32,000 bases of DNA. Origin: Promethearchaeia archaeon (GTDB lineage: Archaea > Asgardarchaeota > Lokiarchaeia > Sigyniarchaeales > SOKP01). Shown here piece after piece: positions 4,863 to 21,158 of this stretch (positions are counted from its first letter, which is position 1; each line of letters begins with the position of its first letter). A program made the position numbers and the translations under genes. The stretch is from contig JAWOFX010000057.1 of the NCBI GenBank assembly GCA_046497275.1, positions 117,249 to 149,248 on the forward strand. Direction: 5' to 3'. The notes under the pieces are model-generated. The model did not search any database. It was given only the letters and a program-made list of their open reading frames with translations, and was not told the DNA's origin.

Positions 4863-6110
4863 TTAATCTTCTTCTTTAAATTTTTCAGGATTAACACAGC
4901 GTCTCCATTCATTCACAGATTCTTTTGGTCCTAATCCAATAACTAAATCTCCCTTTTCAAAAGTAAAATCCTGCTTAAAACTATATATCCATTTATCTTC
5001 CCTTTTAAGAGCGATAATATGAAAGCCTCTTTTATAACGTTTATCTTGAACGTCTTTGTAGGTTTTTCCTCTAAAATATGAGTCCTCTGATAAAGTTTCT
5101 CTTACAACTATTTCAGAAGTTTCTGCTATTGCTTTTTGAAGGATTTTATGAGGTTCAAACCCTTTAATGATGCTTTCAGCGATATTCCCCGCAGCATCTG
5201 ATATTAATTCGCATGAAAAGACGATTCTTAGTATTCCTACTAAATCTCTCGGATTGTCTATAAGATTCGTTAATTCTAATAGATCTTTTTCGAATTTAAT
5301 GTTTAAACCATCCATTAATTCTTCCATTTCTAATACATCTTCCGCAACCTCATAGTTATTAAAAAATAGAGCAGCTAACGCTAATTCTGTCATCGTTTCT
5401 GAAATATCGGTAATTTGAACATAATCTTTCTTAATCTCAGCAAATAACTCTTTAATATCTGGATCTTCAATATTAAATGTCGAATCTTTTAATTGTTTTT
5501 CCAAATCAAAAGAAATAGGTTCATCATCATGAGCTTGTTTTTTCAGTTCCATAATGGGCTCTTTCTCACCCTTAACGATTAGCGTATCTCCTTCTAGAAT
5601 ATCTTCATCTTTATTAAAAAGCCATTTATCATTTCTTCTTATAGCAATAAGATCTACACCATGTTGAGAACGAAAGTGAATCTCTTTTCTGCATTTACCT
5701 ATAAAATCACAATTCTGATTAACTTTTATTTTTACTATAGGTTCAGGAACATAGTCCCACATTACTTGGGTGAAATCTGCGATATCACTGTTTATATATA
5801 CTACTCTTGCAATATCAGACAATGCATCTGAAATCTTATCTATGGAATATCCCATTACAACAATCGGTTCTAATTTTTTCGCATTTTTCAAACCTCCAGG
5901 TTGCGTCTGAATTATCTGGAAATTTAAAAGAAATGTAAGTTCATGAATTCTTTGTTCAATTTTATAAGCCTCGTCAGCGATCTCTTTACTTCCAAATTTA
6001 ATGGCACTATAAGCAAGATCGATCATTAAATCGATATTTTGCTTCATTTGACGCAGAATATCTTTAAGAGAAAGAGGTCTATATTTGAACTTCTTTTTAA
6101 TTGCGGTCAT
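4863..6110 (-). CDS. PhoU-like + TrkA-C (RCK_C) tandem-domain regulatory protein
   Basis: Two PhoU-like helical repeats ('MIDLAYSAI', 'MTELALAALF'), each followed by an RCK_C domain ('DLIAIRRNDKW..ILEGDTLIVKG', 'IIALKREDKW..FEKGDLVIGLG'). Confidence 0.8.
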   Translation of the reverse strand: MTAIKKKFKYRPLSLKDILRQMKQNIDLMIDLAYSAIKFGSKEIADEAYKIEQRIHELTFLLNFQIIQTQPGGLKNAKKLEPIVVMGYSIDKISDALSDIARVVYINSDIADFTQVMWDYVPEPIVKIKVNQNCDFIGKCRKEIHFRSQHGVDLIAIRRNDKWLFNKDEDILEGDTLIVKGEKEPIMELKKQAHDDEPISFDLEKQLKDSTFNIEDPDIKELFAEIKKDYVQITDISETMTELALAALFFNNYEVAEDVLEMEELMDGLNIKFEKDLLELTNLIDNPRDLVGILRIVFSCELISDAAGNIAESIIKGFEPHKILQKAIAETSEIVVRETLSEDSYFRGKTYKDVQDKRYKRGFHIIALKREDKWIYSFKQDFTFEKGDLVIGLGPKESVNEWRRCVNPEKFKEED

Positions 6111-6150
6111 TTTGTTTTTATTATCACTAATTATCTTCTATTTTTTAAAT

Positions 6151-6741
6151 CTATATAAATATTGTTATAAAAATTATAATAAATAAGGGGGATAAAAAGT
6201 CAGCAAGACTGGTTACTGCAGGGATAAGAAAGTTATTTGGATCTTTCCCTTTTTTAAATATAAAAATTGCAGCTATGAAAAGAAAAACAAACATCATACA
6301 GAATAATAATAAAATTGTAATTAATAGGATCAGAATAATTATTAGAGGATTAACTATATCTACTCCTGTAAAATAGGCCATTGAATACCCTATTAGTAAT
6401 AGCGCAACCAAACCCAAGATTGTAGTTAGTAAAAGTCCGATAAATTCTTCTTTTAATCGTTCGGATTTTTCTATATTCGGAGGAATTATACCGATATAAA
6501 GTTGAGTCGTTAAACGAGAAACTAAAACTGTTGAGATATCTCCTATCAAGGAATTTAAAGCGGGAAGTAATAAAAGAATAACAGGTATACTATATAAGAT
6601 TTCTTCATTAAAAGATAAAACAGTTCCCGAAACCATTCCCAATATAGAGGATAATACAACAATTATTATAGATTCCTTCACAATTTTCAAGAAATAATCG
6701 AGTTGGGAAAATTTACTAAATAAATCTTTTATCCTTTTCAT
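6151..6741 (-). CDS. MgtE-type integral membrane domain protein (split Mg2+/divalent cation transporter, subunit 2)
   Basis: Five TM segments; 'PALNSLIGD' and 'DPNNFLIPAVTSLAD' MgtE motifs. Confidence 0.82.
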   Translation of the reverse strand: MKRIKDLFSKFSQLDYFLKIVKESIIIVVLSSILGMVSGTVLSFNEEILYSIPVILLLLPALNSLIGDISTVLVSRLTTQLYIGIIPPNIEKSERLKEEFIGLLLTTILGLVALLLIGYSMAYFTGVDIVNPLIIILILLITILLLFCMMFVFLFIAAIFIFKKGKDPNNFLIPAVTSLADFLSPLFIIIFITIFI

Positions 6742-7296
6742 TTATGGAACCCCCAAAATAATTAAAGTTAAATAAAAACTAAACACTGAGAAAAAATCAT
6801 CAATAGCTGTCATAGTAGGTCCAACCACATTATTAGGATCTAAACCAAACCTGAAAGCTATATAATTTAGCAATGTTGATATGGGAATTGATATGGATAG
6901 ACTAAATAACATGGAAATGACGGGAATGATTAAAATTTTTTCTGGATTTATTATATTTATCCTAAATATAAAAAAATTCATCACTACACTTAATATTCCA
7001 ATTAAGATTGAGGTAACAATCGCTAACACGTAAGTTGCTAACACATTTTCACCCCAAGATTTTAATCCAAAATCTCCCAATATTAGGTCTCGTGAAGTTC
7101 TTGCGATAAAAGGACCGCTAATATTACCTCTCAGAGAAAGGAGTGCTGGGACAATCAAAATTAATAAGGGGAAACTCTTAAAAGGAAGAATCAATATCGA
7201 TAATATTATACCTGCTAAAATCGAACCAATTATGGAGATGACTTCTGAAGGGAAGGTTTCTTTAATAATGCGGAATTTTGTATCCTTCGACTCCAT
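6742..7296 (-). CDS. MgtE-type integral membrane domain protein (split transporter, subunit 1)
   Basis: 'PALLSLRGNISG' and 'GLDPNNVVGPTMTAIDD' MgtE motifs; its stop directly abuts the start of the paralog at 6741. Confidence 0.82.
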   Translation of the reverse strand: MESKDTKFRIIKETFPSEVISIIGSILAGIILSILILPFKSFPLLILIVPALLSLRGNISGPFIARTSRDLILGDFGLKSWGENVLATYVLAIVTSILIGILSVVMNFFIFRINIINPEKILIIPVISMLFSLSISIPISTLLNYIAFRFGLDPNNVVGPTMTAIDDFFSVFSFYLTLIILGVP

Positions 7297-7721: not shown

Positions 7722-7958
7722 ATGAATTTTAAAAGATATGAGTCTCGGTTTAAAGCAGGCGAAATATTAACTAATTATAATAAAGAAAAGAATAAAGGGT
7801 TGTATCAAGAAATTTTAACTAATCCAAATGATACGTTTTGCTTTGCAATACCAAACGGTGGATTACCAGTGGCAGAAAGTTTTTGTTCTATATTAAATAT
7901 TGAATATGATCTGCTTATTGTTCGGAAGATCAAGATCCCCTATAATTGTTTCGTCTAA
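7722..7958 (+). pseudogene. N-terminal fragment of a phosphoribosyltransferase (paralog of 11735-12439), truncated after KIPYN
   Basis: 49 of the first 75 codons are identical by manual alignment to the intact copy (IPNGG.PVAESFCS, YDLLIVRK.KIPYN). Similarity stops at ~7946, before the PRPP-binding motif. Confidence 0.85.
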
Positions 7959-8222
7959 ATCAATAATTTCTTATAAATATTTTATAAACAAACTATAAAC
8001 TCTAAGAGTTGAATGAGATTAAAAAAAGGATATAAGTATCACTTTAATTTCTTTTTTAAATTTTGAAGTGATTTAAAATAATGAAAGATTTACTGAGTTA
8101 ACTAATTTGAAAATAGTACTATTCAAAAAAATTAAAAAATATATAAATTTGAAATTTTATATTAGATGGAAGAGTTCAAAGAATAATGCATAACCAAAAT
8201 TTTATTTAAATTGTATAAATTT

Positions 8223-8891
8223 TTATGGATTAACGACTTTTACACGGAATTGTGAAAGTAACTCGTCTAATTCTTTGATTTTTTTATTAACATTTACAAC
8301 AGTATCTAATGTAAATGCAGTTTTATCATTGATTATCAAAGTTATTTTACCAGCTCTTAAAGCTATATATTCAAAAACATCTGTTATTTCTTTTGTATAT
8401 TCCAAATTAGCTGTAGGAAATCTCTTCAAGTTTGCTAAGAATCCTTTTTTATGATACACTTCATTTTTTTCAATTTTCCAATATTCAAATCTTTCTTCAA
8501 ACCATACGAAAAATAGGATGAAACCCAAAATTATAGTCACAACTAAATAAAATTCTGTTGTTAAGCTTAAATCTAAGGTTCCCAGAAATAAAGCTGTTAG
8601 ATCAATATTTAAATATGGTAAAATAACATAGAAAAAAATGATTATCGAGAGAATAATAATAACAACTGCCACAAATAATCGTGTGCTATTCGTTTCAAAG
8701 GCTATAACAAATAGATTAAGGAAAAATATAATTATCCAAATATATCCTAAAATATTTGTTGATACATCAAAGTAATATTGAATGCAGCATAAAATAATGG
8801 AAATTATAAATAACGGATAAAAAAAGATTACTTTTGGATATCTTCTTAATATAATAGATTTAGATTCGACTGAATTTTTTCTTAAAGACAT
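8223..8891 (-). CDS. Membrane protein with ~4 N-terminal TM helices and a probable C-terminal bacterial-PH-like (bPH) cytoplasmic domain
   Basis: Hydrophobic N-terminal two thirds. The tail 'YWKIEKNEVYHKKGFL...DVFEYIALRAGKITL' follows the bPH/YdbS-like pattern (pattern recognition only). Confidence 0.6.
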   Translation of the reverse strand: MSLRKNSVESKSIILRRYPKVIFFYPLFIISIILCCIQYYFDVSTNILGYIWIIIFFLNLFVIAFETNSTRLFVAVVIIILSIIIFFYVILPYLNIDLTALFLGTLDLSLTTEFYLVVTIILGFILFFVWFEERFEYWKIEKNEVYHKKGFLANLKRFPTANLEYTKEITDVFEYIALRAGKITLIINDKTAFTLDTVVNVNKKIKELDELLSQFRVKVVNP

Positions 8892-9167
8892 TATTAAAAC
8901 TACTCTTTATTATGATATATAAAAAATTATTTTTAGAATTATAAATCTATATGGTAAAAAATAGAAACTATGCTAATTAAAGTTTCTTTATATATTCGGT
9001 TCTTTTCAAAGCTCTCCCATCAATTAACCTATTTTTGGATTTTTTCTTAATATTATTTAAAGGTTTTTGTTTTATTTTTATTATTTTAATCGCGTTTTAG
9101 GGCGTCTTAGAACATAGACTAAGACTGACTTGCTATGATATAAAAAAAAACGTTTTTGTTATAATAC

Positions 9168-9836
9168 CTAAATTTCTATTTTGATTTCATTTACTTTTTC
9201 TGTCAATGAGTAAATAATACTTTTTGATGATCTAACCTTTTGTACTAAACCAAATTCTTCAAGTAAATTTAAATATTTGGTAATTGTGTTAGGATGCATA
9301 CTTAATCCTTCAGAGAGTTCTGTTTTATTTTTTCCATCATTGTCATTTTCAAGATAATTGATAATTTTTTTCGATCTTTTTTTAGAAATTACATGAATGA
9401 ATTTAACTTTTTCAAAATCGAGTGTTGCACAATGATATAAATCATGATTAAGAAACTCTCTACTAGATATAAAGTTAAATTTCAATAATATGTTTAGATG
9501 CCATATTCCTACATTGTTTGGGATATGCAAATTTGTAATAATATCGTTAAAATAACAGCCGGGATTTTTTATGATGTATTCAAATATTTTTGTTCGCGTT
9601 TTATTTTTTAGAATATCTTTACGACTTAATTTAGAACCTTCCACGATATAATTTTTTTCGATTAAGGATTTTATAACTTTCTTAATTCCTTTTTTGTTAA
9701 TATTGAAGTTTTTTATTCTAAGTCTTGCAACTATGTAAGGAATTATCTTTTTAATTTTAAATACTCTATTTTCATCTAAATATTCTTGGATAATGGTAAG
9801 TATTATTCTTTCTTTTTTTTCAAGCTTCTTCCACAT
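9168..9836 (-). CDS. Winged helix-turn-helix transcriptional regulator with tandem HTHs (COG3398-like)
   Basis: 'RTKIFEYIIKNPGCYFNDI...WHLNILLKF' and 'KTELSEGLSMHPNTITKYLNLLEEFGLV' HTH motifs; SD-like GAGGA 9 nt upstream. Confidence 0.85.
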   Translation of the reverse strand: MWKKLEKKERIILTIIQEYLDENRVFKIKKIIPYIVARLRIKNFNINKKGIKKVIKSLIEKNYIVEGSKLSRKDILKNKTRTKIFEYIIKNPGCYFNDIITNLHIPNNVGIWHLNILLKFNFISSREFLNHDLYHCATLDFEKVKFIHVISKKRSKKIINYLENDNDGKNKTELSEGLSMHPNTITKYLNLLEEFGLVQKVRSSKSIIYSLTEKVNEIKIEI

Positions 9837-17143: not shown

Positions 17144-17410
17144 TTAATCGCTTTCCAACTTGAACAAAATTGAGGAATGAGGGATATAAAATTCATCATC
17201 ACTCTTTACTATTATTGTATGAAAATATTCAGCGAGCCCTAGAAAACCTCGAATCACGGACTCATCCTCTTCAAATCTGAAGGTTACTTTTGCAATAGTA
17301 TTTTTTGAAATTATATCTGCTTTATCATAAACTCTCTCATCAACAAGAGGAATCTTCAATTCGTTCACTATTTCGTATACTCTTTTAACAAATAATTCAT
17401 TCTTACCTAT
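17144..17410 (-). CDS. Small soluble hypothetical protein (~88 aa if it starts at ATA 17410; 74 aa from GTG 17368)
   Basis: The frame stays open with coding-like residues upstream of the GTG ((I)GKNELFVKRVYEI-VNELKIPL). SD-like GGTGG lies 6 nt before ATA 17410. Confidence 0.65.
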   Translation of the reverse strand: MGKNELFVKRVYEIVNELKIPLVDERVYDKADIISKNTIAKVTFRFEEDESVIRGFLGLAEYFHTIIVKSDDEFYIPHSSILFKLESD

Positions 17411-17833: not shown

Positions 17834-18529
17834 GTGCCATCGGAAAAGAAGAAGATTAGTAGAGTAATTGACTTTATGAAAAAAGGATTAACCAGTTTAG
17901 CTGATGAATTAGAAGAGACTGTGAAAAATATAAATTCTTTTATTGATTCTCTTCAAAAAGCTGAGAAAGATCTGAAGGGAATTAGCATTGAAAAAGTAAC
18001 CACTGTCAGTACGTCATCTCAACAAGTGGTTGCCCCAACATCAGATGCGAAATCTACGGCAGCCAATACACTATTTAGCTTATTAAGTGGCTCTCAAGCT
18101 GGCGCGGGTATATCTCAACCAGCTACAGCCCAATCTAGTGGTTTGAAAGCTCCAACATTAGGAGGACCTAAAGCACCAAGCGCGGGACCACCTAAAGCGC
18201 CATCCTCTGGCCCTCCTAAAGCACCGTCTGCCGGACCACCAAAGAAATCAAATTTACCTCCAGCACCAAAACCATCCGCAGGACCTCCAAAAGCACCAAG
18301 CGCGGGACCACCAAAGGCACCAACATCGGGACCTCCAAGCACACCAGCATCATCTGGACCACCAAAGGCACCAACATCGGGACCTCCAAGCACACCAGCA
18401 TCAGCAGGTCCACCAGCAGCCCCTAGAGCACCTGCAACAGCACCTAAGGCAGGAGGAGGTTTGAGCTCACTGAGAGATGAAATGTTGGATGAATTAAATC
18501 GCTTAAAAAAGATTATGCGTGGAGAATAA
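17834..18529 (+). CDS. Coiled-coil / proline-rich / C-terminal WH2-like protein (candidate actin-binding or nucleation-promoting factor)
   Basis: Heptad I12-L19-L26-I33-L40-L47; amphipathic 'AANTLFSLLSG'; nine GPP-containing repeats; terminal 'GGGLSSLRDEMLDELNRLKKIMRGE'. GTG start with SD. Confidence 0.8.
   Translation: MPSEKKKISRVIDFMKKGLTSLADELEETVKNINSFIDSLQKAEKDLKGISIEKVTTVSTSSQQVVAPTSDAKSTAANTLFSLLSGSQAGAGISQPATAQSSGLKAPTLGGPKAPSAGPPKAPSSGPPKAPSAGPPKKSNLPPAPKPSAGPPKAPSAGPPKAPTSGPPSTPASSGPPKAPTSGPPSTPASAGPPAAPRAPATAPKAGGGLSSLRDEMLDELNRLKKIMRGE
18161..18448 (+). repeat. Intragenic tandem repeat encoding GPPKAPS(A/S)/GPPSTPAS units, including an exact 48-bp duplication
   Basis: GGACCACCAAAGGCACCAACATCGGGACCTCCAAGCACACCAGCATCA occurs at 18305-18352 and 18356-18403 (51-bp period); the other units are synonymously diverged. 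Confidence 0.92.
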
Positions 18530-18530
18530 A

Positions 18531-18560
18531 TCTTATTCCTTTTTAACCTATTTTTCTCCT
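18531..18560 (+). terminator. Possible oligo-T terminator after the Pro-rich gene
   Basis: Pyrimidine/T tracts TCTTATTCCTTTTTAACCTATTTTTCTCC immediately after the stop. Confidence 0.4.
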
Positions 18561-18647
18561 AAATTATTTAGTGATCTTTATTCTTTTTTGGATATTAATC
18601 ATTAAAAGATTAGATTTTAATGCTTTAATAAATAATCATTCAACAGA

Positions 18648-19397
18648 ATGTCAGATAAAAAAACTATTATCTGTGAAGATCAGGAAATTCCGATTGTAAT
18701 ACCAAAGAGATTAATGGTGTTTGCTCCTCATCCCGATGATGAAATTATTTCATGTGGTGGGACAATTCTAAAATATGAAGCGCTTGGATCAGAAACAACA
18801 ATTATAATAGCTACCTCTGGACTTGGTGGTTATGCAAAAAAGGAAGAAAAAAAACATATTTTAGAAACAAGAGAAAAAGAGATACAAAACATTAGTGAAA
18901 TATTAAATTCAAAAGTGATAGAATTAGGCTATGATCATTTAACTATAAATCGGGAAGCCATTTCTAGAATTACTAATTTAATTAGAGATCTCAGACCGCA
19001 TGTAATTTTTATGCCTCACTTTTCAGATTTTCATCGTGTTCACCGTGAACTCTCATTCATAGTTCGGGAAAGTATTTATCATTGTGCGACTGGGAAAGCG
19101 TATGGCGGTCATAGTCGAAATTGGACTCCGTTTGCGGTTTATTATTATGAATCGCCATCATGTAAATTTCAATACATCGAGGGCTCTGTGTTTATAACTG
19201 TTGATATAGAGAACTATTGGGAACAAAAAAAGCAAATTTTTAACCAAATTTATAAATCTCAGAAAGAAGTGTTAAAAAGAGTTATGGATTGGGCAGAAGA
19301 CACAGCAGTTTTGAGAGGAAATGAGATAAATTCAAAATTTGGTGAAGCATATATCCCCGAAACAACGTACACTCCTCTAAAAATCTTGTTGGGTTAG
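18648..19397 (+). CDS. PIG-L / LmbE / BshB family metal-dependent de-N-acetylase
   Basis: 'VFAPHPDDEIISCGGTI', 'REKE', 'IRDLRPHVIF..H..D.HRVH', 'ITVDIENYWEQK', 'RG......FGEAY'. Confidence 0.88.
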   Translation: MSDKKTIICEDQEIPIVIPKRLMVFAPHPDDEIISCGGTILKYEALGSETTIIIATSGLGGYAKKEEKKHILETREKEIQNISEILNSKVIELGYDHLTINREAISRITNLIRDLRPHVIFMPHFSDFHRVHRELSFIVRESIYHCATGKAYGGHSRNWTPFAVYYYESPSCKFQYIEGSVFITVDIENYWEQKKQIFNQIYKSQKEVLKRVMDWAEDTAVLRGNEINSKFGEAYIPETTYTPLKILLG

Positions 19398-19534
19398 AAT
19401 TTGAAATTTATAAATTGCGATTAATCTTTAGTTCTTTAGAAAAATCCAATAAATAGTGGGAAATCATTTTCTAAATTATCAAAAATCCATTATAAATTTT
19501 ATTAGGATAAAAATTCTTAATTATTTTAATACTA

Positions 19535-19543
19535 TTTATTATA
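19535..19543 (+). promoter_or_regulatory. Candidate TATA box for a (near-)leaderless actin-related transcript
   Basis: TTTATTATA 32-24 nt upstream of ATG 19567; no SD. Weak because the background is AT-rich. Confidence 0.3.
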
Positions 19544-19566
19544 AGAAGAAATTCGATAGATAAAAA

Positions 19567-20682
19567 ATGCCAAATCTAACTATTGTCATGGATATAGGAC
19601 AATTTAGCAGTAAAGTGGGGTTTTCAGGTGAAGATAACCCTGCAATGGTATTTTTTACTATTGTGGGAAAACCGAAATACGCTGATTTTGAGGGTCAATT
19701 TACAAAACAGAAGCAGGAACTTTATGTAGGTGACGAAATACAATCATTAGGATTATATAAAATTTATCATCCTATTGAAAAAGGAAGAATTACTGATTGG
19801 AACTACTTTGAAAAAATAATGGATTACACCTTCTATAATTTACGAGTGGATCCAACTCTTGTTAATATACTCTTTGCCATTCATCCTCTCTTTCCTACCT
19901 TTGATTTAGAACGATTATTTGAGATTTTTTTAGAAAAATATCAATGCATGGCGTTTTATCCAGTATTAGATCCAATGCTTACATTATATTCTGGAGGATT
20001 CCAAACTGGTCTGGTGGTTGAGATTGGAGATAGTGGCACAAGAATAACTCCCATTTATGAAAGTTTTAAAGTTGAACATGCTATTGAAATATTGGATGTG
20101 GGTGGAAAGGATTTGACCCGATATATGGGTGAGACTTTAAAGAACACTACGGGGTTTAATGTAGATTCATCTATTAGAAGGGAATTAGTACGCGCAATAA
20201 AAGAAAAAGCATGTTTCCTTTCTTTGGATTATAAGGAAGATCTAAAACGAACCGAACAATATGAAAAGCAATATTCTCTTCCAGATGGTTCCCGGATCAC
20301 ATTAAGTAAAGAAAGATTCATGGTTCCCGAACTCCTCTTTACCCCACTGCCGGAATCTGAAAATAAACCATTACATATAGCCATCATGGATGTCATCGAA
20401 AAATGTGATCTCGATATCAGACAAGAATTATTAAATAATATTTTTATATCCGGAGGATCCTCAATGTTTCCCAATCTAAAGGCAAGATTATATCAAGAAT
20501 TAGAATTAGAACTTGCTCGAAGAAAAAAACAAGACCAGACTATAAAAATTGTTGCTCCAAGAGAGAGAACCTTTTCAGTATGGGTGGGAGGTTCAATTTT
20601 AACGATGATTCCTGAATTTTCTGATAATTGGATTACTCGTGCTGAATATTTTGAAGAAGGAATTCCTGAAGATCTGCTATAA
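19567..20682 (+). CDS. Actin-family protein (divergent Asgard actin-related protein)
   Basis: Colinear with eukaryotic actin over the full length: IVMDIGQFSSKVGFSGEDNP, YVGDE, HPIEKGRITDW, LRVDP, IKEKACFLSLDY, YSLPDG, ERFMVPELLF, KCDLDIR, ISGGSSMFP, IKIVAPRERTFSVWVGGSIL, WITRAEY.E.G. Confidence 0.95.
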   Translation: MPNLTIVMDIGQFSSKVGFSGEDNPAMVFFTIVGKPKYADFEGQFTKQKQELYVGDEIQSLGLYKIYHPIEKGRITDWNYFEKIMDYTFYNLRVDPTLVNILFAIHPLFPTFDLERLFEIFLEKYQCMAFYPVLDPMLTLYSGGFQTGLVVEIGDSGTRITPIYESFKVEHAIEILDVGGKDLTRYMGETLKNTTGFNVDSSIRRELVRAIKEKACFLSLDYKEDLKRTEQYEKQYSLPDGSRITLSKERFMVPELLFTPLPESENKPLHIAIMDVIEKCDLDIRQELLNNIFISGGSSMFPNLKARLYQELELELARRKKQDQTIKIVAPRERTFSVWVGGSILTMIPEFSDNWITRAEYFEEGIPEDLL

Positions 20683-20780: not shown

Positions 20781-21158
20781 ATGGAAAAGATTAATCCTGA
20801 TAATCTTGAAACTATTAACCTTATGAAGAAATATTATAAACCAGATTATTCAAAATTATTCAACAAGATAAAAAATATTAAAACTCCTGTTAAGAATAAA
20901 ATTTTACATGCTTTGTTAGATGGTTCTTGGCATTCTGAGTTAGAACTGATACGGATCGCTCGAAAACAAGAAAATTATATTGGTTCAGTTACCTTAGGAA
21001 CGATGGTAAATTCTCTCAATCATATTGTCCGTAATGATTATTTGGAGAAAAAACAAGCGGACGGAAAAATGTATTATAAGCTTTCAGATAATTATGTTGG
21101 ACTCACACGCGCAGCATATACAAAATATCAATATGAACATAAAGATCTAGAGTCTTAA
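20781..21158 (+). CDS. Small winged-helix protein, possible DNA-binding regulator
   Basis: 'KILHALLDGSWHSELELIRIA...VTLGTMVNSL...YLEKKQADGKMYYKLS' has the helix-helix-helix-beta-wing pattern; SD-like GAGGA upstream. Confidence 0.65.
   Translation: MEKINPDNLETINLMKKYYKPDYSKLFNKIKNIKTPVKNKILHALLDGSWHSELELIRIARKQENYIGSVTLGTMVNSLNHIVRNDYLEKKQADGKMYYKLSDNYVGLTRAAYTKYQYEHKDLES

Follow-up and report, generated by a model that had tools for sequence, protein, structure and literature searches.

Gene organization and anatomy of PRO

The window analysed here is a stretch of 32,000 nucleotides of contig JAWOFX010000057.1 from a Promethearchaeia archaeon, one of the Asgard archaea. This work concerns a gene in it that encodes a 231-amino acid (aa) protein, designated PRO, and the genes around it: a small upstream neighbor (S74), a PIG-L family deacetylase gene and the gene of an actin-related protein (ARP) further downstream (Table 1). 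Asgard families are given f-numbers, f1 being the family of the window genome (G000). An initial annotation of the region had described PRO as an N-terminal heptad helix, a linker of GPPKAP-type repeats and a terminal helix, with an actin-family gene downstream on the same strand and only the PIG-L gene between them. Open reading frames (ORFs), an AlphaFold2 (AF2) model and a heptad count confirmed this anatomy, and Pfam searches identified both downstream genes. The gaps of 118 bp (PRO to PIG-L) and 169 bp (PIG-L to ARP) and the T-tracts behind the first gene are also present as described; the T-tract region is, from its sequence, the probable end of a transcript.

Table 1. Features of the PRO region (positions are those of the window; pLDDT, predicted local distance difference test score)
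Feature	Position	Strand	Evidence
S74, ~88-aa orphan alpha/beta protein, divergent neighbor of PRO	17147..17410	-	Homology; AF2 pLDDT 89.8
PRO gene, candidate 231-aa tether protein, GTG start	17834..18529	+	ORF; at least 200 homologues, Asgard only
N-terminal heptad-repeat helix, residues 4-48, family-specific 'handle'	17843..17977	+	AF2 pLDDT ~90; many invariant columns
Conserved AKTAAASTLFSLLSG motif, residues 72-84, weak predicted helix	18047..18085	+	K73-L84 columns invariant; low pLDDT
Disordered Pro-rich linker, GPPKAP-type repeats	18086..18460	+	pLDDT 39-65; length and sequence differ among homologues
Linker motif NLPPAPKP, MIM2-like; family consensus NLPPAPKLPP	18251..18274	+	L141, P142, A144, P145 invariant or nearly so
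C-terminal 'LRDEML' helix, residues 210-228, putative docking element	18461..18517	+	AF2 pLDDT 85-93; nearly invariant
Intergenic region after PRO, T5/T5/T6 tracts 3' of the stop codon	18530..18647	+	Direct read
PIG-L family deacetylase	18648..19397	+	PF02585, 4.9e-23
Actin-related protein (ARP), altered nucleotide-site and catalytic residues	19567..20682	+	PF00022, 7e-87; residues 5-365 of 371
125-aa ORF 3' of ARP	20781..21158	+	No Pfam family above cut-off

The AF2 model, built from a 32-sequence alignment, shows two confident helices, at residues 4-48 and 210-228, a weak one at 72-84 and disorder from 85 to 209. Hydrophobic residues fill 85% of the a/d positions of the N-terminal helix across ~6.5 heptads. 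An invariant TVSTSS motif (residues 57-62, columns T57-S62) precedes AKTAAASTLFSLLSG. The linker is encoded by tandem 24/51-bp repeats, and its length is not equal between close relatives. One 51-bp unit at 18305-18415 occurs in 2.2 copies with 95% identity, which suggests a recent repeat expansion.

PRO gave no Pfam-A family above its cut-off by hmmscan at E<=1, the best matches being unrelated helical families. Homology searches recovered at least 200 PRO homologues of 208-246 aa, all of them labelled Asgard and lacking both a Pfam domain and an informative name. The N-terminal helix, TVSTSS, AKTAAASTLFSLLSG, NLPPAPKLPP and the last ~25 residues are nearly invariant among them, and the linker is otherwise free to vary. 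Judged by this conservation, the PRO gene is real and more than a chance reading frame, and it belongs to a large, undescribed and unnamed Asgard family. Sequence searches of the PDB with profiles of PRO and S74 found nothing relevant and no relative with a solved structure, and a search of the ESM Atlas with PRO returned only its own cluster and weak unnamed clusters.

Distribution and carriers of the terminal helix

The terminal helix has the consensus LRxEMLxELxRL[KR]x[IL][MF]. It is amphipathic, about 18 residues long and usually followed by RG[ED]. A profile of the helix alone identified 74 representative clusters among 1.84 billion proteins. Whole-genome searches found the helix in 326 of 400 Asgard genomes, mostly once per genome; by family, it was present in 30/31 genomes of f13, 22/22 of f16, 11/12 of f18 and 6/6 of f21. 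Families f13, f16 and f18 possess the helix yet have no PRO, no S74, no member of the window ARP orthogroup and no zinc ribbon of the kind described below. In the window genome just two proteins bear the helix: PRO, and a protein of 139 aa on contig C118 that consists of the helix and a zinc ribbon.

Several carrier types were distinguished besides the PRO type. Carriers in f9, f13 and f18 have one N-terminal transmembrane (TM) segment, followed by a coiled coil and a Pro-rich linker that leads to the helix. Multipass membrane proteins, which end in the helix at a length of 500-630 aa, are another type and include the f16 carriers. In f1, carriers also exist in which a Ras/Roc GTPase and a Pro-rich stretch precede the helix, present once or twice, and a CPxCG...GIPCCxC zinc ribbon; in others, the zinc ribbon comes after two to three helices in tandem. 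The tail of the TM carriers is predicted to lie in the cytoplasm because basic residues follow the TM segments. The helix is a portable, near pan-Asgard module on differently anchored proteins.

Some individual carriers and loci were recorded in the course of this survey. P0268 (549 aa) is a fusion in which an N-terminal TM segment precedes a whole PRO-type protein, helix included, and a TIR domain (PF13676, 6.3e-18) forms the C-terminus. Locus L087 (G066:C1) encodes two tandem paralogous multipass membrane proteins (5591-7258 and 7798-9486), each ending in the helix. The neighbors of membrane-anchored carriers are housekeeping genes, and no cytoskeleton or ESCRT family was seen among the first 25 of 81 listed. 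The gene rpiA (ribose-5-phosphate isomerase A) is found near the helix-carrier gene in 5 of 10 loci (L081-L090) from several families; it directly adjoins the carrier gene in L081, L084 and L085, and L088 is also among the five. The zinc ribbon (CPxCG...NH...FYF...GIPCCxC) is found in the window genome only at G000:C118:25092-25511(-) and G000:C170:7938-8747(+). The C118 protein carries its own helix, LRNEMLEELNRLKELI, and the C170 protein is Ras-like and has no helix. Up to seven copies of the domain occur per genome.

Conservation pattern of the helix and comparison with WH2 motifs

Conservation was scored over 70 distinct helix instances, collected with a regular expression that limits the conserved positions to small residue sets; within these sets M217 and E220 were found in 70/70 instances, R223 in 69 and L224 in 67, and L213 and E216 almost never change. 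Position 225 is K or R in 67 instances. The only variable positions are 215, 219, 222 and 226, which fall in one 60-degree stripe (180-240 degrees) of the helical wheel, so about 300 degrees of the helix surface appear to be constrained. This pattern agrees with a peptide held firmly in a bundle or a deep groove and not with the one-faced contact of a WH2 motif.

The initial annotation had read the end of PRO as an amphipathic helix followed by LKKI and hence as a WH2-like actin-binding motif. The terminal helix is indeed there, but in the AF2 model, which represents the free chain only, LKKI (224-227) lies inside the single continuous helix 210-228 and not in an extended segment after it. The WH2 profile (PF02205) gave no match in PRO by hmmscan against Pfam-A at E<=1. 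The second K of LKK (position 226) is one of the four free positions, with K in 25, E in 13, R in 9, D in 6, S in 5 and A in 4 of the 70 instances, and lineages show variants such as LKS, IKE, IKG and LRE. Position 227 is I or L, with T in none of the 70 instances and V in one, where a WH2 motif would have T or V. The suggested kinship with WASP/WAVE or Ena/VASP proteins found no support either: PRO contains no Pfam domain for a WH1/EVH1 or SHD head, an EVH2 tetramerisation coil or a central motif, and its C-terminus (IMRGE) has no acidic/Trp motif. All WH2-like motifs found reported in a search of the Asgard literature reside inside gelsolins.

Linkage of PRO to the ARP gene

ARP has ~44% identity to eukaryotic actins in a phmmer alignment. 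The equivalences proposed earlier for the WH2-binding cleft hold in this alignment: Y143, I345, L346 and F352 of actin are retained, L349 and Y169 are replaced by I and F, respectively, and D24/D25 correspond to E22/D23. The substitutions S14 to Q, G15 to F, Q137 to D and H161 to R show that the canonical phosphate-loop and catalytic residues are not kept, and together with D154 to E they suggest altered or lost polymerisation-coupled ATP hydrolysis.

Synteny was examined over ~8 kb on each side of 40 PRO-family members. All 28 other f1 loci have, on one strand, PRO, an optional PIG-L gene (16/28), ARP and the 125-aa ORF, and ARP stands directly after PRO in 12 of the 28. In 22 loci outside f1 the 7-8 kb around the carrier gene contain no actin gene, and PRO-actin adjacency is absent in f3, f4, f5, f7, f9, f13, f16, f18, f19, f21, f27 and f31. 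The linkage to actin genes that had been anticipated was found in all f1 loci sampled and nowhere else in the survey. The ARP orthogroup (at least 48% identity) is confined to f1 and f3, that is, to one order, the order of the window genome; elsewhere the best match to ARP is at the level of Lokiactin (44-46%). An ARP orthologue in the f3 genome G132 lies ~70 kb from PRO with a PIG-L gene directly upstream of it (locus L121, G132:C2:254697-265797, 5001-6869). Since PIG-L has stayed with ARP there, PIG-L-ARP looks like the older pairing, and PIG-L looks to be paired with ARP rather than with PRO. The 125-aa ORF was not found beside the f3 ARP orthologues.

The adjacency of PRO and ARP is weak evidence of a functional link for several reasons. 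Gene order in f1 is conserved overall, with topoisomerase, MgtE and histidine-kinase neighbors about as constant as ARP; the ARP orthogroup occurs in f1 and f3 only; the f3 ARP keeps PIG-L and not PRO; and the 22 non-f1 carrier loci have no actin gene nearby. A two-gene actin-regulator module, as proposed in the initial annotation, would be hard to reconcile with a helix found in 326 of 400 genomes on unrelated carriers. The modular anatomy of the earlier reading was borne out, and its WH2 motif and dedicated PRO-ARP module were judged to be wrong or at least to lack support.

PRO as a candidate tether protein and possible docking partners of the helix

On balance, PRO is probably the soluble, Loki-type member of a near pan-Asgard family of cytoplasmic tethers that dock by the terminal helix, at the end of a flexible leash, into a conserved Asgard partner. 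The handle of such a tether would hold it in place at the membrane or within a complex that is oligomeric or associated with S74. Among carriers the handle varies: it is a TM segment with a coiled coil in f9, f13 and f18, a multipass domain in f16, and the 45-residue heptad helix in PRO. The long disordered Pro-rich linker would serve as a flexible leash in the cytoplasm, and the terminal helix as a docking peptide nearly fully buried in a partner conserved across Asgard archaea. The partner is not specifically the neighboring ARP. Conservation, distribution, architectures and synteny are observed here, and from these burial and docking of the helix, the leash function and the partnership with S74 are inferred. 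Several points weigh against this tether proposal. The helix conservation is partly circular, because the collecting expression restricts the residues at the conserved positions, and invariance within the allowed residue sets is the informative part of it. The helix matches in f31 and f15 have E values of 1e-4 to 1e-6 on a 36-position profile and may include chance matches. The linker style and the helix are all that membrane-anchored and soluble carriers have in common, and the two may be analogous users of one motif and not one homologous family. In most f3 genomes S74 is unlinked from PRO, the two genes being 25 to 260 kb apart in three closed genomes.

Three candidates for the partner were considered, each of them improbable taken singly: an actin (Lokiactin or ARP), an MIT domain, and the helix itself or another carrier. 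We give an MIT domain slightly less credence than the other two, and the remaining probability goes to something else. Binding of the helix to the hydrophobic groove between subdomains 1 and 3 of an actin fold, the mode of WH2 motifs, arcadin-2 and ParR, by which PRO might recruit, sequester or membrane-link Lokiactin, ARP or both, seems unlikely. It would account for the constant order of PRO and ARP in f1 and for the retained groove residues of ARP, and there is an archaeal precedent in arcadin-2, a groove-binding C-terminal helix encoded beside crenactin (PMC5173319). The helix is also deployed as WH2 motifs are, with a Pro-rich region upstream, in tandem copies and on membrane-anchored carriers, and matches at the level of Lokiactin exist in nearly all genomes searched. 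The window genome has two Lokiactin-type actins, at G000:C156:92430-93542 and C84:44117-45223. Against an actin partner stand the missing WH2 profile match, the position of LKKI within the helix, the conservation of ~300 degrees of the surface together with a variable second K, and the contrast between an ARP orthogroup of one order and a near pan-Asgard helix, as well as the synteny results above. None of 73 helix-bearing representatives is fused to an actin-binding Pfam domain. In the main text of a Lokiactin co-immunoprecipitation study in L. ossiferum (10.1101/2025.11.30.690169), the enriched proteins named are profilin, gelsolins and an Arf GTPase, and a protein of the present kind is not among them. 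A bolder version, in which the LRxEMLxELxRLK helix is an Asgard-specific Lokiactin-docking motif and the TM carriers are the missing membrane-to-actin linkers, is likewise doubtful. If it were true, soluble PRO with S74 and the Ras-like/zinc-ribbon carriers would be regulated recruiters, and the motif would predate eukaryotes as an analogue or functional forerunner of motifs of the WH2 type.

The tail of PRO could instead be a ligand of MIT domains like that of Ist1, with the helix acting as an MIT-interacting motif of type 1 (MIM1) and LPPAPKLP as one of type 2 (MIM2), and it would then recruit Vps4 or another MIT protein; we regard this as quite improbable. MIM1 is a Leu-based amphipathic helix with charges that form salt bridges, and its consensus is (D/E)xxLxxRLxxL(K/R). 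M217, L221, L224 and K225 of PRO fit its positions 4, 8, 11 and 12, but position 7, the canonical Arg, is Glu (E220). The Vps2/24/46-type ESCRT-III protein of the window genome ends in IDELEKELDRLKSKD and has D-E-phi-x-x-E-L-x-R-L-K in common with PRO. This core was found three times in 2.39 M six-frame residues (in the ESCRT-III protein, PRO and the C118 protein) against 0-1 times in shuffled sequences, but the expression was written post hoc, with the ESCRT-III sequence already seen. Of 30 C-termini of ESCRT-III proteins from 16 other families, not one matched the expression or exceeded 4.5 bits with the helix profile, and the profile at E<=10 did not report the window genome's own ESCRT-III protein. 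The helix moreover conserves L213, R214, L218, I227 and M228, which ESCRT-III tails lack. A specific MIM1 relationship is doubtful, as the strict core was defined post hoc and failed on the 30 independent tails. In the linker, 105 of 119 family members have LPPAPK[LP]P, which agrees with the MIM2 consensus phiPxphiPxxPphiP (PMC5840170, citing Kojima 2016) over its first eight positions, and MIM2-like matches number 1.41 per linker against 0.26 in shuffles. Short matches come easily in Pro-rich sequence, however, and PRO of the window reads LPPAPKPS, without the third MIM2 proline. Both motifs are present in Ist1, and Snf7-family genes were found in 61/61 genomes searched. As a third candidate, the helix may be an association element that pairs with other copies, for example in an antiparallel manner with the acidic N-terminal half against the basic C-terminal half, and in f1 also packs on the helix-2/zinc-ribbon unit; this too has a low probability in our estimate. 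It is in keeping with the two to three tandem copies in single proteins, with conservation around most of the helix, as expected for burial in a bundle, and with the presence in the window genome of one zinc-ribbon protein with the helix (C118) and a Ras-like one without it (C170). In the six zinc-ribbon proteins in which both motifs were located (P0245, P0251, P0257, P0290, P0302 and P0311), the start of the helix and the first Cys of the zinc ribbon are always 45-48 residues apart, which suggests that helix and zinc ribbon form one folded unit packed in cis. Self-association fits poorly with the single helix-bearing gene of most genomes, and 16-18 residues are short for a stable autonomous coiled coil. 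The zinc ribbon, found in 124/134 cases in f1 and close to none elsewhere, cannot explain helix conservation across classes because it is essentially confined to f1; a helix-less zinc-ribbon domain as a general receptor in trans was rejected for the same reason.

Comparison with known systems

Arcadin-2 of Pyrobaculum (PMC5173319) resembles PRO in its conserved C-terminal helix, its non-conserved unstructured linker and its gene position beside an actin homologue (in f1 for PRO). There is no detectable sequence relationship between them, and groove binding was measured for arcadin-2, whose peptide depolymerises filaments, whereas PRO is known from sequence and models. Linkage to actin is seen in only one family of PRO, and the PRO helix is reused on many carriers. 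Proteins with WH2 motifs (WASP/WAVE, WIP, MIM/ABBA and Spire) and Ena/VASP proteins share with PRO the layout of an oligomerising or membrane-targeting head, a Pro-rich linker and a short terminal or tandem helix with L-K-K. In PRO the LKK is inside the helix, where conservation takes in nearly the whole surface but neither the second K nor the T/V position; unlike those proteins, PRO lacks an EVH1/WH1 domain, central and acidic motifs and long poly-Pro runs.

The tails of Ist1 and ESCRT-III proteins (PMC5840170, PMC7240154) have, like PRO, a flexible linker, a terminal Leu-based charged amphipathic helix and a phiPxphiPxxP-like motif upstream. PRO differs in having no ESCRT-III core, the profile similarity is not significant and the MIM1 Arg is replaced by Glu. 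Its MIM1-like and MIM2-like motifs are also ~65 residues apart, unlike those of the Ist1/ESCRT-III tails.

Bacterial ZipA-type tethers have an N-terminal TM anchor, a long P/Q-rich linker and a C-terminal FtsZ-binding module. The carriers of f9, f13 and f18 show a similar layout: behind the N-terminal TM segment come a charged or coiled region, a long Pro-rich linker and a putative binding element at the cytoplasmic C-terminus. ZipA ends in a globular domain, in contrast to an 18-residue helix with a predicted docking role in the Asgard carriers, and there is no homology between them.

The wiring of the actin, ESCRT and small-GTPase systems of Asgard archaea to membranes has been little described, and the actin regulators characterised are profilins and gelsolins only. 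A nearly invariant helix, about single copy, is now found in some four-fifths of the Asgard genomes searched, and the candidate leashes that carry it are membrane-anchored in several classes. Used as bait, the 18-residue peptide could retrieve an interaction hub that is both central and conserved. Should this hub prove to be Lokiactin or Vps4, these carriers would be the first membrane tethers reported for the system concerned in Asgard archaea; any other identity would point to a conserved machine so far unrecognised. The survey also adds the orphan family S74, and it cautions against over-reading the adjacency of a gene to ARP.

The small neighbor S74

The S74 family has 355 homologues, all Asgard and without a Pfam match. 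S74 adjoins PRO in f1, f5, f7, f19 and f27 and is thus a neighbor conserved across classes. S74 follows the soluble PRO type in its phyletic pattern and is missing where the carriers are membrane-anchored only (0/3 genomes of f9 and 0/22 of f16). This absence makes it more likely that S74 serves the PRO-specific head, and from these patterns S74 is a likely partner of that head. Complex prediction of S74 with residues 1-95 of PRO gave a score of 0.00 in a run without controls, which counts neither for nor against a partnership. No informative fold was found for S74: the best Foldseek match in the PDB had an E value of 0.11, and the best VIA-align match in a wide search had a Z score of 4.5.

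The start of S74 in the window is unusual. Homology runs in frame to an ATH codon, and at 17369-17410(-) the frame reads IGKNELF where homologues have MGKNELF or MAKNELF; no ATG, GTG or TTG codon is present there. The gene would either start at the ATH codon or have lost 14 residues of the first helix. Two S74 copies occur in many f1 genomes. The second paralog of the window genome (G000:C150:1983-2249(+), 88 aa) has a normal ATG start and no PRO-like neighbor.

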